Shown one piece after another: positions 1 through 12,000 of a DNA stretch of 64,000 nucleotides (positions are counted from its first letter, which is position 1; each line of letters opens with the position of its first letter). Source of the stretch: Escherichia coli O157:H7 (lineage in GTDB: Bacteria; Pseudomonadota; Gammaproteobacteria; Enterobacterales; Enterobacteriaceae); assembly GCF_013167455.1 (NCBI RefSeq), contig NZ_CP038328.1; one strand, given 5' to 3'. The position numbers are program-made.

Positions 1-3000
1 ATTCCCGGGGGCTATTACCACTGCTGGCAAACGTCGCCAGAGTCGATCCGCTGGCCGCCGCGCGCACCAGTATTCAATGCTTAACCCTATAACAATTAAG
101 GCTGCAATCAATGGAACTTCGAAATAAGAAATTAACCCATGACGAATTCATGACCGAGCGGCAACAGGTACTGAAAACCTGGGAAACCGGCAAGGATGTT
201 GAAAACTTTGAAGATGGCGTTAAATACCAACAAACCATCCCTGAGCATAAACGTTTCTCTCTTGCGCTGCTGAAAGCAGACAAGGAAGGTAAAACCCTTA
301 GCCAACCGCGCGCAGGTGTGGCGCTGATGGACGAACACATCGAACTGCTGAAAACACTACAAGAAGAGTGCGATCTGCTGCCAAGCACCATCGATGCATA
401 TACCCGTCTGAATCGGTACGAAGAAGCGGCTGTAGGGATTAAAAAATCCATCGAAGCCGGAACCTCTAAACTGAACGGTTTACCGGTAGTTAACCATGGT
501 GTCGCAGCTTGCCGTCGCCTCACCGAAACCCTGCAAAAACCGCTACAGATCCGCCACGGCACGCCAGATGCGCGTCTGCTGGCTGAAATCTCAATGGCCA
601 GCGGCTTTACCAGTTATGAAGGCGGTGGCATTTCCTACAACATTCCGTATGCCAAACGCGTAACGCTGGAAAAATCGATCCGCGACTGGCAGTACTGCGA
701 CCGTTTAATGGGGATGTATGAAGAACACGGGATCCGCATCAACCGCGAACCGTTTGGCCCACTAACGGGTACGCTGATCCCGCCGTTTATCTCGCACTCT
801 ATCGCGATAATCGAAGGCTTGCTGGCGCTGGAACAGGGTGTGAAATCTATCACCGTTGGTTATGGCCAGGTCGGCAGCCTGACGCAGGATGTTGCGGCGA
901 TCCAGTCTCTGCGTGAACTTGCACACGAATATTTTCAGAGCTATGGCTATACCGACTATGAATTGAGTACCGTGTTTCACCAGTGGATGGGCGGCTTTCC
1001 GGAAGACGAATCGAAAGCGTTCGCTATTATCTCCTGGGGCGCAGCCGTCGCGGGGATGTCTGGTGCCACCAAAGTCATCACCAAAAGTCCGCACGAAGCC
1101 TGGGGTATCCCGACTGCCGCTGCCAACATTCAGGGGCTGAAAGCCTCCCGCCAAATGCTCAACATGGTCAATGAGCAGAAATTCCCGCCGTGCCCTGCGG
1201 TTGAACTGGAAATTGAACTGATTAAGAGCGAGGTTCGCGCGGTACTGAATAAAGTGTTCGAACTGGGTAATGGTGATATTGCGCGCGGAACGGTGCTGGC
1301 ATTTGAAGCGGGCGTACTGGATGTGCCGTTTGCGCCAGCCGCCTGCAACGCGGGCAAAATTCTTCCGGTCCGTGACAACACCGGCGCGATACGCGTACTG
1401 GAAGCCGGAGCCGTTCCATTGCCAAAAGATATTCTCGACCTCCACCACGATTACGTTGCGGAACGCGCACGCTGTGAAGGACGCCAACCGACATTCCAGA
1501 TGGTTGTAGATGACATCAATGCTGTATCCCACAGTAAATTAATAGGAAGACCATAATGAAAATAAAACAGGCTCTGTTCACCGCTGGCTACTCCTCATTC
1601 TATTTCGATGACCAGCAGGCGATAAAAAACGGAGCGGGTCATGACGGCTTTTTTTATACCGGGGAGCCAGTAACACAGGGGTTTAACGCCGTACGTCAGG
1701 CCGGGGAGTGCGTATCGGTACAGTTGATTCTGGAAAACGGCGCGGTCGCCGTAGGTGACTGTACTGCCGTACAGTATTCCGGGGCAGGCGGTCGCGATCC
1801 ACTGTTCCTCGCAGAGCACTTTATTCCGTTCCTCAACGACCATATCAAGCCATTACTGGTAGGCCGCGATGTGGATGCTTTCCTGCCGAATGCCCGTTTC
1901 TTCGACAAATTGCGTATTGACGGCAACTTGCTGCATACCGCCGTGCGCTACGGATTATCACAGGCGCTGCTTGATGCTACCGCGCTGGCAACCGGCCGTC
2001 TGAAAACTGAAGTGGTCTGTGATGAATGGCAGTTGCCACGCGTGGCGGAATCCATTCCATTATTTGGTCAGAGCGGCGACGATCGATATATCGCCGTCGA
2101 TAAGATGATCCTTAAAGGCATCGACGTGCTGCCCCATGCGCTGATTAATAACGTCGAAGAGAAGCTGGGCTTTAAAGGTGAAAAACTGCGCGAATATGTC
2201 CGCTGGTTGTCGGATCGCATTCTAAGCAAGCGCACCAGCGCACGCTACCACCCTACCCTGCACATCGATGTATACGGCACTATCGGTCTGATCTTCGATA
2301 TGGATCCGCTTCGCTGTGCGCAATACATCGCCAGCCTGGAAAAAGAAGCGCAAGGCCTGCCGCTCTACATCGAAGGGCCGGTCGATGCCGGTAACAAGCC
2401 CGATCAAATTCGCCTGCTGACCGCGATTACCAAAGAGCTGACGCGCCTCGGTTCCGGCGTGAAAATTGTGGCCGATGAATGGTGTAACACCTACCAGGAT
2501 ATTGTTGATTTCACTGATGCTGCCAGTTGTCACATGGTGCAAATCAAAACCCCGGATCTGGGCAGTATTCACAACATCGTCGATGCGGTTCTTTACTGCA
2601 ACAGCCACAGCATGGAAGCGTACCAGGGCGGCACCTGCAATGAAACTGATGTCAGTGCCCGCACCTGTGTCCACGTCGCCCTTGCCGCTCGCCCCATGCG
2701 TATGCTGGTAAAACCAGGGATGGGCTTTGACGAAGGCCTCGATATCGTCTTCAACGAAATGAATCGTACTATCGCGCTGTTGCAGGCTAAGGATTAACAA
2801 ATGGCTCGTTCTTTTAAAGTCTTATCGCCAACGGCAATCCTCGGGTATGGATTCCCGGAAGAGAGCTTCCGCAAAGCGATGGCAGAATCGCCCGATCTGA
2901 TCGCCGTTGATGCAGGCTCTTCCGATCCAGGCCCCCACTACCTCGGGGCAGGCAAACCGTTTACCGATCGCGCAGGGGTCAAGCGCGATCTGCGCTATAT

Positions 3001-9000: not shown

Positions 9001-12000
9001 CTTATTTAATGTTTCTTTTACTATCCCCAGGTAATACTTCCCTGTATCATTAAGAAAAATGCGTTTTTTAGAGTGTGAAAATAACGGAGTACGTAAAAAT
9101 TCCTCCAGCGCACTTACTTGTCTGAATACTGCACTTTGGGTTAACGCTAACTCCTCTGCCGCTCTGGTATAACTTTCATGACGTGCGACGACCTCAAAAG
9201 TCACCAGCAGTTCCGTTTTAGGTATTTTCCCTCGCATAATGCCGTCCCTTAAAAATAGTTTAAACCATCAAAAATACATTACTTATTACGAAGTAATGGT
9301 AACCAAAGCAGCAATAAATAATTTATAAGAATCATGATTGACATTTATAAACCAGTAAGGCTGGCGTGACAAATATCTTAATCAGATAATAATAATCCGA
9401 AAAGCACAGCGCCTTTCGAATTATCCGGAATCACATTAAGTGAAAATTATTAAATTGATATCATTTATCATATCTGTGGATATTATGATAAACAATCAAC
9501 AAAGATTTTATTTTTGATTTATAGCATATCCCTCTAAGAATTTTTGCGATGCTGCAATATCCGGGGTAAAGACCCGATCCTGGCTGACAAATGGCACGAC
9601 TTGACGAAAAGCGGTGAACATCGCTTTTGTTGATTTACTTAACGCTACGGTCAAACGCTGGGAAGCCAGTGCATCAGGTAACGATTCGAAATTCGCCGTC
9701 GTTCTTATTCGTGGCTTGCGGTCGGTTGCGGCAATCCACAGTGGCTGTGGTCATGCAGTCAAGCCTGCAGTCAGATTTCGACCGTGGTTAACCGTTTAAG
9801 GCATAAAAAAGGCCATCATACGATGGCCAACCATGTCGAAACCGACAGCCCTTCGCCATTCCTGTAGAGGGAAGCGGCGAGGGCTATTTCTTATTACAGA
9901 TATTTATTTCAGAACAGTTTTCAGTGCTTCACCGATATCCGCCAGGCTGCGAACGGTTTTCACGCCTGCGGCTTCCAGAGCAGCGAATTTCTCATCCGCA
10001 GTCCCTTTCCCACCGGCAATGATGGCACCCGCGTGGCCCATACGTTTGCCTTTCGGCGCAGTCACACCAGCGATGTAACCCACAACTGGCTTGGTAACGT
10101 GCTCTTTGATGTACGCAGCTGCTTCTTCTTCAGCGCTACCGCCGATCTCACCGATCATCACGATCGCTTCGGTCTGCGGATCTTTTTCGAACATTTCGAG
10201 AATGTCGATAAAGTTAGAGCCAGGGATCGGGTCACCGCCGATACCGACACAGGTCGACTGACCGAAACCGTAATCCGTGGTCTGTTTAACCGCTTCATAG
10301 GTCAGTGTACCGGAACGGGAAACGATACCCACTTTACCCGGTTTGTGAATGTGACCAGGCTGAATACCGATTTTGCATTCACCCGGAGTGATAACGCCTG
10401 GGCAGTTCGGGCCGATCATACGAACGCCTGCTTCATCCAGCTTCACTTTCACGGTCAGCATATCCAGCGTCGGGATGCCTTCAGTGATGGTGATAATCAG
10501 TTTGATGCCTGCGTCGATGGCTTCCAGAATGGAGTCTTTGCAGAACGGTGCTGGTACGTAGATAACAGAAGCGGTAGCGCCAGTAGCAGCAACAGCTTCA
10601 CGCACGGTGTTGAACACCGGCAGGCCGAGGTGGGTAGTACCGCCTTTACCTGGGGTTACGCCGCCAACCATTTTAGTGCCGTATGCAATGGCCTGTTCTG
10701 AGTGGAAAGTCCCCTGGCTACCGGTAAAGCCCTGGCAGATAACCTTGGTGTTTTTATCAATTAAAATGGACATTATTTCCCCTCCACTGCGGCAACAACC
10801 TGCTGAGCTGCATCCGTCAGACCTTTTGCTGCAATAATATTCAGGCCGCTGTCAGCCAGTTTCTTCGCGCCGAGTTCGGCGTTGTTACCTTCCAGACGTA
10901 CCACGACCGGTACGTTAACACCCACTTCCGCTACCGCACCGATGATACCGTCAGCGATCAGGTCGCAACGAACGATACCGCCGAAGATGTTAACCAGAAC
11001 GGCTTTCACTTTGTCGTCAGAGAGGATGATTTTGAACGCTTCGGTTACACGTTCTTTGGTTGCGCCGCCGCCAACGTCCAGGAAGTTAGCCGGTTCGCCG
11101 CCGTGCAGTTTAACGATGTCCATCGTACCCATCGCCAGGCCTGCGCCGTTAACCATACAACCGATGTTACCGTCCAGCGCAACGTAGTTCAGTTCCCACT
11201 GTGCAGCCTGTGCTTCACGCGGATCTTCCTGCGACTGGTCACGCATTTCGCGCAGATCAGGCTGGCGGAACAGGGCGTTGCCATCAGCGCCCAGTTTGCC
11301 GTCGAGGCAAATCAGATCGCCCTGTTTGGTGATGACCAGCGGGTTGATTTCGATCAGCGCCAGGTCGCGCTCCAGGAAAATGGTCGCCAGGCCCATGAAG
11401 ATTTTGGTGAACTGCTGAACCAGTTTACCTTCCAGACCCAGTTTGAACGCCAGCTCGCGTCCCTGATACGGCATCGGGCCAGTCAGCGGATCAAGCGCAA
11501 CTTTGTGGATCAGGTGCGGAGTTTCTTCCGCCACTTTTTCGATTTCCACGCCGCCTTCGGTGGAGGCCATAAAGACCACGCGACGTGAACTACGGTCTAC
11601 AACGGCACCGAGATACAGCTCTTTAGCGATATCGGTCGCTGCTTCAACCAGAATCTGGTTAACCGGTTGGCCATTGGCATCTGTTTGATACGTTACCAGA
11701 CGCTTGCCCAGCCAGTTTTCTGCAAAAGCACGGATGTCTTCTTTGCTGTTTACAACTTTCACACCGCCCGCTTTACCGCGGCCACCAGCGTGAACCTGAC
11801 ATTTCACTACCCACGGACCGGCACCGATTTTTGAAGCGGCTTCTTCTGCTTCGCGCGGAGTAGTACAGGCATAACCCACCGGTGCTGGTAAGCCATAGCG
11901 GGCAAACAGTTGTTTTGCCTGATATTCATGTAAGTTCATGTGTTCTGTCCATCCTTCAGTAATCGTTATCTTTTAAACCGTAGACCGACACCCTATCCAC

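Follow-up and report, generated by a model that had tools for sequence, protein, structure and literature searches.

A gene cluster for the anaerobic breakdown of glutamate has been described in Escherichia coli O157:H7 by Kronen and Berg (PLoS One 2015, PMC4682846), who called it the "glutamate fermentation gene cluster," and it is this locus that occupies positions 1 to 9800 of the stretch of E. coli O157:H7 DNA analyzed here (the window; 64,000 nucleotides [nt] of contig NZ_CP038328.1, assembly GCF_013167455.1). The legend of Fig. 5 in that paper lists GlmS, MutL, GlmE, Mal, a DUF1446 protein, a GltP-like transporter, FumD, CobA, and a LysR-type regulator. FumD (ECs0757) was named and purified there and was found to prefer mesaconate, with a kcat/Km of 2e6 compared to 7.5e5 for fumarate, and the share of strains carrying the cluster was given as 26.5% for E. 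coli and 90.6% for O157:H7. The function of the DUF1446 protein and the fate of citramalate were left open ("unclear"). In the portions of the paper that were available, the account of the cluster mentions neither a DUF4387 protein nor hut and rtcB relics nor alternative island types.

The cluster of Clostridium tetanomorphum and C. tetani shares with the E. coli island the mutase subunits S and E, MutL, Mal, and a class I fumarase-type mesaconase, and the chemistry is the same, glutamate being converted to NH3, acetate, and pyruvate. In contrast to the single-chain FumD of the island, however, the clostridial mesaconase is the two-subunit MesAB; the clostridial citramalate lyase is an acyl-carrier enzyme homologous to CitDEF and accompanied by biogenesis genes, whereas that of the island would be the unrelated, nucleotide-binding CmlAB; and the clostridial regulator belongs to the GntR type, whereas the island encodes a LysR-type regulator and adds a transporter and an adenosyltransferase. 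The haloarchaeal methylaspartate cycle, which serves acetate assimilation, proceeds by way of mesaconyl-CoA, using a CoA-transferase, a hydratase, and β-methylmalyl-CoA lyase. The genes for these CoA-dependent steps are not present in the island, where a mesaconase and a lyase stand in their stead.

Our analysis indicates, with a probability that we put at roughly 85%, that window positions 1 to 9800 represent the distal two-thirds of a chromosomal accessory operon for a complete methylaspartate (mesaconate) pathway of glutamate breakdown, carried on an old, vertically inherited segment. The cluster itself was already known; what is added is the assignment of a citramalate lyase, CmlAB, which closes the step left open by Kronen and Berg. 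A preliminary description of the window, made from the sequence alone, had rightly stated that such an accessory module was reported, at least in part, for O157:H7-type strains. It was also right that two further proteins are encoded downstream of the ammonia-lyase gene, but they can no longer be called unknown, as both match citramalate lyase subunits, and the open reading frame (ORF) pair at 2801 to 4485 is, judging from sequence, the E. coli ortholog of cmlAB.

ORF 2801-4171 matches chain A of PDB entries 9ERQ and 9EVF over its full length with 970 bits, and ORF 4168-4485 matches chain B with 193.5 bits. In the depositions, the two chains bear the names "Citramalate lyase, subunit A (cmlA)" and "subunit B (cmlB)," and the complexes contain AMPPNP plus citramalate or ADP plus pyruvate. 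An AlphaFold model of the window CmlA, built from 28 homologs and having a pLDDT of 87, was matched by Foldseek to 9evf_A (citramalate lyase with ADP and pyruvate; released 2025-10-08) at 92% identity and a TM score of 0.94. Glycine-rich invariant motifs, including G81, G84, G85, G87, A88, and H91, are kept across the 28 homologs. As expected of a CmlAB-type gene pair, the genes overlap (by 4 nt, 4168-4171) and encode an AtuA protein of about 456 amino acids (aa) and a DUF4387 protein of about 105 aa, both alignable over their full lengths. The Raoultella planticola enzyme likewise consists of subunits of 456 and 105 aa from the AtuA/DUF1446 and DUF4387 families, and its genes lie at the same place, directly 3' of mal. 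It is the Raoultella CmlAB whose structure has been solved, while the window pair are orthologs known from sequence and model; the Raoultella cmlAB genes, a gift of the Berg laboratory, were used in a recent preprint (bioRxiv 10.64898/2026.01.16.699985). By homology to CmlAB, at 92% identity, the citramalate-cleaving enzyme of the pathway is thus accounted for.

Public annotation does not reflect this assignment. There is no NCBIfam model covering CmlA or CmlB, Pfam searches with the two proteins returned AtuA and DUF4387 only, and the RefSeq product names still read "AtuA family" (acyclic terpene utilization) and "DUF4387." AtuA of the Pseudomonas atu cluster gives its name to Pfam family PF07287, which CmlA matches with 64 bits over residues 63 to 394; this match is modest and at family level, and the surrounding genes encode glutamate mutase and Mal, not atu functions. 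The label "acyclic terpene utilization" is therefore uninformative with respect to CmlA function. No ORF of the island matches the CitD/E/F-type families in NCBIfam, which places CmlAB outside the classical acyl-carrier lyase family; its structure, too, is unrelated to that of the citrate and citramalate lyases of this classical type. Since the deposited ligand pairs combine an ATP analog with the substrate and ADP with the product, ATP appears to be consumed or required by CmlAB. Plausibly, ATP would activate the C4 carboxylate of citramalate, and acetyl phosphate would possibly be released.

The other steps of the pathway are covered by curated family models (NCBIfam/TIGR equivalogs with their cut-offs; Pfam was used for the cmlA and cmlB ORFs). 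GlmE and methylaspartate ammonia-lyase, which the preliminary description had placed at 111 to 1556 and 1556 to 2797, score above the cut-offs of TIGR01503 and TIGR01502 (Table 1), and residues 3 to 481 of GlmE align to positions 1 to 480 of its profile, that is, over the full length. Family models also agree with the earlier naming of a dicarboxylate/amino acid:cation symporter (DAACS) transporter, a class I fumarase (which is FumD), a BtuR/CobA-type adenosyltransferase, and a convergent LysR gene. The FumD ORF reaches 924 bits with the FumA model, under its cut-off of 1105, and the cobO ORF also matches NF004637 (296 bits; cut-off, 185). The mutase small subunit gene glmS and glmL, presumed at the outset to lie upstream of the window, are indeed annotated there, directly adjacent to it, in genomes that show 100% identity across window 1-10000. 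Glutamate mutase (subunits E and S with the MutL/GlmL reactivase) is accordingly encoded by the window and the DNA immediately upstream of it, and both 3-methylaspartate ammonia-lyase and a class I fumarase-type mesaconase are encoded within the window. All eight window ORFs, from glmE to the LysR gene, are intact at the coordinates first read from the sequence, and window 1-9800 is 100% identical to E. coli O157:H7 genomes. The genes from glmE to cmlB are closely packed or overlapping, the mal start and the glmE stop sharing 1 nt.

In the pathway that we propose, glutamate would be imported by the DAACS symporter and converted by the adenosylcobalamin-dependent glutamate mutase (GlmE and GlmS, with GlmL as reactivase) to (2S,3S)-3-methylaspartate, for which CobO would provide adenosylcobalamin made from salvaged corrinoid. 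Methylaspartate ammonia-lyase would then yield mesaconate and NH3, FumD, an oxygen-sensitive [4Fe-4S] class I fumarase, would convert mesaconate to (S)-citramalate (a hydration demonstrated with the O157:H7 enzyme), and CmlAB would cleave citramalate to pyruvate and acetate. With the formerly unknown pair identified as CmlAB, the island would encode every step by which glutamate yields pyruvate, acetate, and NH3; on paper, the pathway is complete in E. coli O157:H7.

The association of cmlAB with mal, glutamate mutase, and mesaconase genes was found in the window and at six other loci. CmlA homologs number in the thousands, and the best 120 matches, with at least 62% identity, include proteins from Riflebacteria, Lentisphaerae, and Accumulibacter. 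The order GntR-glmS-mutL-glmE-mal-cmlA-cmlB recurs in a Riflebacterium, in a Lentisphaerae metagenome-assembled genome, and in a third bacterial genome of 5.4 Mb, and a class I fumarase gene lies within the locus in two of these three nonenterobacterial genomes. Pseudescherichia vulneris, Enterobacter, and Yersinia enterocolitica have the order glmS-mutL-glmE-mal-cmlA-cmlB-SDF transporter, plus fumD and a LysR gene; in Yersinia the latter and the glm genes are transcribed divergently, as is classical for a LysR-type regulator and its target.

Further observations were made at these loci. In the Riflebacteria, the Lentisphaerae, and the third genome, cmlB is followed by a gene for a conserved protein of about 313 aa that contains a Walker A motif (GAEGAGKST) and belongs to no Pfam family. 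tblastn gave no significant match to this P-loop protein in the island or window (best E value, 0.64), and the 314-aa protein encoded at the left end of the island was rejected as its counterpart, there being no similarity (BLASTP E value, 7.9). On an Enterobacter metagenome contig (L013), the cluster lies between mngR and sucD, has an extra glutaminase gene between the transporter gene and fumD, and carries a PocR/AraC-type regulator gene beside the LysR gene.

Table 1. Features of the island and of comparison loci (window coordinates unless a locus is named)
Feature	Position	Strand	Basis or remark
glmL (mutL) 3' end, glutamate mutase reactivase	1-92	+	RefSeq glmL, L001 6704-8092
glmE, glutamate (methylaspartate) mutase subunit E, 481 aa	111-1556	+	TIGR01503, 866 bits (cut-off 390)
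mal, 3-methylaspartate ammonia-lyase, 413 aa	1556-2797	+	TIGR01502, 543 bits (cut-off 286), full length
cmlA, AtuA/DUF1446 family, 456 aa	2801-4171	+	Pfam PF07287, E 1.5e-17
cmlB, DUF4387, 105 aa	4168-4485	+	PF14330, E 2.9e-39; PDB 9erq_B, 193.5 bits, residues 1-104
DAACS symporter, 426 aa	4646-5926	+	DctA NF002461, 314 bits; GltP NF008440, 302 bits; both below cut-off
fumD, class I [4Fe-4S] fumarase, 550 aa	6034-7686	+	NF011921, 1287 bits (cut-off 1060)
cobO/cobA, ATP:cob(I)alamin adenosyltransferase, 200 aa	7696-8298	+	TIGR00708, 247 bits (cut-off 168)
G+C-rich hairpin, 11 pairs	8302-8328		terminator-like site in consensus scan, pattern match only
LysR-family (GcvA-like) regulator, 301 aa	8332-9237	-	NF008352, 221 bits, below cut-off
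A+T-rich upstream (promoter) region of LysR gene	9238-9507		matches LysR-hutH spacer of long form
hutH-like (HAL/PAL/TAL) relic, codons 511-556	9511-9648	-	tblastn with E17 HAL, 40/46, E 1e-24
hutH-like relic, codons 378-397	9640-9699	-	tblastn with E17 HAL, 18/20, E 2e-07
rtcB-family relic, codons 375-398	9703-9774	+	tblastn; rtcB pair E 2e-10 and 1e-04
rtcB-family relic, codons 451-462 and stop (9797-9799)	9758-9799	+	tblastn, blastn, junction sequences
SdhX (RybD) small RNA, sucD 3' untranslated region	9803-9903	-	100/101 identity to K-12 MG1655 sdhX (b4764)
sucD	9904-10773	-	family model score
Two left-end hypothetical genes, 314 and 140 aa	L001 4259-5203, 5285-5707		upstream of window
E17 hut set and rtcB: HAL-family lyase (556 aa, divergent), hutG, hutI, hutD, NCS1 permease, hutU	L003 14271-24179		
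E09-type loci	L006 6123-10501; L004 1-12415		intact rtcB and mngB-mngA-mngR
Walker A protein, about 313 aa	L007 10712-11665; L009 10677-11618; L008 14269-15201		

In a survey of 5426 complete E. coli genomes, in which carriers were defined by at least 80% coverage of window 1-10000, the island was present in 1118 (20.6%), whereas in noncarriers the first 10 kb of the window was matched from position 9797 onward only. In locus L001, taken from a genome 100% identical over window 1-10000, the O157 island extends from 3830 to 17796 (13,967 bp), and the window contains its right-hand 9.8 kb. The preliminary description had the island at the place where K-12 has mngR next to sucD. K-12 MG1655 indeed lacks the gene set and is annotated as sucD-sdhX-mngR-mngA-mngB-cydA, and a B strain has the same arrangement. 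The position next to sucD also stands, but that of a simple insertion at the sucD-mngR junction does not, as the island lies between cydA and mngB in those E. coli genomes that have both it and mngRAB.

This follows from a comparison of island-bearing genomes, among which there are at least three arrangements. In the type of strain E09 (L004 and L006; NZ_CM143881.1), a 15.5-kb segment between mngB and the cydA upstream region, with the order hyp-hyp-glmS...cobO-LysR-rtcB ("hyp" standing for a hypothetical gene), takes the place of 470 bp, so that the island and mngRAB occur together. Because this type keeps both, the place of the island in E. coli is between cydA and mngRAB, and the two are not mutually exclusive. 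In the type of strain E17 (L003; NZ_CM143886.1), a hut gene set stands between the LysR gene and rtcB, and mngBAR is missing; the 556-aa HAL-family lyase of this set scores below the hutH cut-off. Here the sucD 3' untranslated region directly adjoins the stop codon of rtcB, at TTTAAG/GCATAAAAAAGG (the slash marks the junction), and the microhomology TAAG is common to the mngR stop junction.

The third type is that of O157 in the window: its rtcB-sucD junction is as in E17, but it has lost the hut genes and the greater part of rtcB. Window 8200-9645 and L003 12963-14408 align at 95.4%, and the rtcB relics are 91 to 97% identical to L003 and L004 by blastn. What would pass for a 559-bp spacer (9238-9796) is a deletion scar with four short relics, two of them hutH-like and two of the rtcB family. 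A diverged mngR remnant was considered for this spacer and rejected: tblastn with MngR gave no match, and the 103-bp sucD 3' untranslated region alone aligns to K-12 and B. Since hutH and rtcB relics are present and other genomes have intact hut and rtcB genes at the same spot, the O157 form is best read as a truncated long form, and the alignments indicate that one deletion of about 9.1 kb and two smaller ones gave rise to it. On this sequence evidence, it is very probable that the O157 lineage lost mngRAB, the hut operon, and most of rtcB by deletion, so that in this lineage the island stands in place of mngRAB. The interval between cydA and sucD is thus a hotspot of repeated gene loss.

The long hut form was found in 144 genomes, among them those of strains FDAARGOS_497 and RS571, rtcB without hut but with mngRAB in about 150, the O157-type scar (spacer identity of at least 95%) in about 815, and mngRAB in 3864. 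As about 815 genomes share the spacer, the relics are unlikely to be absent from other O157-type islands. Our literature search retrieved no report of hut genes beside the cluster in E. coli, nor of the hut/rtcB scar. E. coli is usually treated as hut negative. A tentative and, in our estimate, rather doubtful extension of these observations is that the O157 island is the eroded stump of an island of about 23 kb in which the methylaspartate pathway was coupled to histidine utilization (Hut), the route from histidine to glutamate. If this were true, the 144 long-form genomes could ferment or catabolize histidine to pyruvate, acetate, NH3, and formamide, as does Clostridium tetanomorphum. The LysR gene, which lies directly 3' of hutH in the long form, might then sense a signal other than glutamate, and this could explain the failure of glutamate to induce the cluster in O157:H7.

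Several points weigh against a functional pathway as proposed here. Kronen and Berg found no condition of expression in E. coli O157:H7, and strain ATCC 700728 did not grow anaerobically on glutamate with or without cobalamins (PMC4682846). The function of CmlAB rests on the depositors' names, the entry titles, and one preprint; the solved enzyme is that of Raoultella, 92% identical to the E. coli protein; and the role of ATP in the lyase reaction is taken from entry titles. The transporter (start at 4646 in RefSeq), whose position is taken by an SDF-family transporter in three further enterobacterial loci, is presumed to be a symporter for glutamate uptake, and the LysR-type regulator is the presumed and most likely regulator of the operon. 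E. coli does not synthesize B12 de novo, and for this reason the pathway would depend on external corrinoids.

Taken together, such points could mean that the island is a cryptic, decaying remnant, functionless in O157:H7, for whose loss there has been too little time. This would fit the negative growth and induction results of PMC4682846, the B12 dependence in a species that does not synthesize it, the eroded right flank with its hutH and rtcB relics and without mngRAB, and the island copies in some strains that are disrupted by IS1 or partly deleted. The genes themselves speak against this. Compared with two diverged E. coli alleles (L003 and L004), the eight window ORFs, all full length, have ratios of nonsynonymous to synonymous substitutions (dN/dS) of 0.00 to 0.23 at dS values of 0.02 to 0.11, while the adjoining relics have fallen to 87 to 91% identity. 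Although the published expression data are negative, purifying selection on the eight genes speaks against a pseudo-operon in decay, and the island is retained in 1118 genomes of diverse origin and reportedly in about 90% of O157:H7. We therefore consider decay unlikely and judge a different substrate to be marginally less likely still. According to the latter explanation, the transporter would import, and the island would serve to use, a C5-dicarboxylate or amino-dicarboxylate from outside the cell (mesaconate, citramalate, 3-methylaspartate, or itaconate-related acids), with the mutase acting only in a side branch or in reverse. The transporter does score slightly better with DctA (C4-dicarboxylate) than with GltP, although below both cut-offs, FumD and FumA/B are active on mesaconate, E. 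coli expressing CmlAB grows on mesaconate, and glutamate gave no growth support in the published work. A full B12 apparatus (GlmS, GlmE, GlmL, and the adenosyltransferase) is, however, needed for the step from glutamate to methylaspartate only, the order glmS-mutL-glmE-mal-cmlAB is kept in distant bacterial lineages, and genes that would feed glutamate into the pathway have been added elsewhere, namely, the hut operon in long-form E. coli islands and glutaminase in the Enterobacter variant. Glutamate catabolism by a conserved pathway remains the reading that we prefer.

As for origin, the preliminary description had called the pathway one normally associated with anaerobic clostridia; this holds for the biochemistry but not for a recent origin, hallmarks of mobility being absent. 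A recent acquisition, in which the O157 lineage received a mobile island from anaerobic Firmicutes at its sucD-mngR junction, would accord with the classically clostridial biochemistry, with the patchy G+C content along the island, and with a copy of 80% identity on a 416-kb Salmonella plasmid. Yet no integrase or insertion sequence (IS) is annotated between cydA and sucD, L001 has no tRNA, and the two island junctions share no direct repeat of at least 9 nt. The cluster occupies the same cydA-sucD interval in several E. coli island types, Pseudescherichia, and Enterobacter (in the last on the sucD side of mngR), the E. coli alleles have diverged by 0.6 to 2.7%, and the enzymes and regulator are unlike the clostridial set, with FumD in place of MesAB, CmlAB in place of a CitDEF type, and LysR in place of GntR. 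We give such an acquisition scarcely any credence, and the simplest reading is that the island is a long-resident, repeatedly lost segment of the Enterobacteriaceae and not a recent clostridial import.

Some individual sequences are of note in this context. The plasmid copy, in Salmonella enterica serovar Macclesfield (NZ_CP022118.1, 232729-242113; about 80% identity), is the sole real plasmid match, those to E. coli in the plasmid collection having been rejected as mislabeled chromosomes. In at least one E. coli strain (NZ_JALDNN010000001.1, 1368461-1375317), where only 61% of window 1-10000 is matched, IS1B lies in the island, an example of ongoing loss. The G+C content is uneven, with 0.38 for cmlB, 0.445 for the LysR gene, 0.385 for the scar, and 0.516 for the remaining window. 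Despite its overlap with cmlA, cmlB thus differs from its neighbors (cmlA, 0.55; transporter gene, 0.49), and the CmlB protein is invariant among the three E. coli types compared.

At the sucD side, the DNA of SdhX, a small RNA formed from the 3' end of the sdhCDAB-sucABCD transcript (PMC6393394), belongs to the conserved core outside the island, and its terminator is kept at 9828-9811. Because island-derived DNA stops 3 nt beyond SdhX, the rearrangements have left it untouched. At gathering thresholds, Rfam gave no match in window 1-14000, SdhX included. The hairpin between the convergent cobO and LysR genes is, from its sequence, likely a terminator for both, and a promoter consensus scan of the gaps 4486-4645 and 5927-6033 and of the LysR upstream region found nothing above shuffled expectation. 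At the cydA side, the 314- and 140-aa proteins of the left end have no significant NCBIfam or Pfam match, and the Pseudescherichia and Enterobacter versions lack their genes. A scan for FNR boxes (TTGAT-N4-ATCAA with up to 2 mismatches) found none upstream of glmS and a total of 20 against 14 expected, which is not above chance. The sole perfect FNR-type palindrome, TTGATTTATATCAA (L001 3791-3804), lies in the conserved region upstream of cydA, 25 nt inside that region and beside the left island junction (L001 3829/3830), and a palindrome that resembles it, TTGATAAATATCAA, occupies this place in K-12 and B.

For the annotation of bacterial genomes, these results mean that the public labels "AtuA family" and "DUF4387" could be updated to a citramalate lyase that closes the pathway. 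It is of modest interest, too, that some E. coli strains keep a hut operon joined to the methylaspartate pathway. Glutamate is abundant in the gut. About one-fifth of E. coli, including nearly all O157:H7, hold genes that, given corrinoids, would lead from glutamate to pyruvate and acetate without the tricarboxylic acid cycle, and at the level of genes this may bear on the anaerobic nutrition of enterohemorrhagic E. coli and on its competition for niches.

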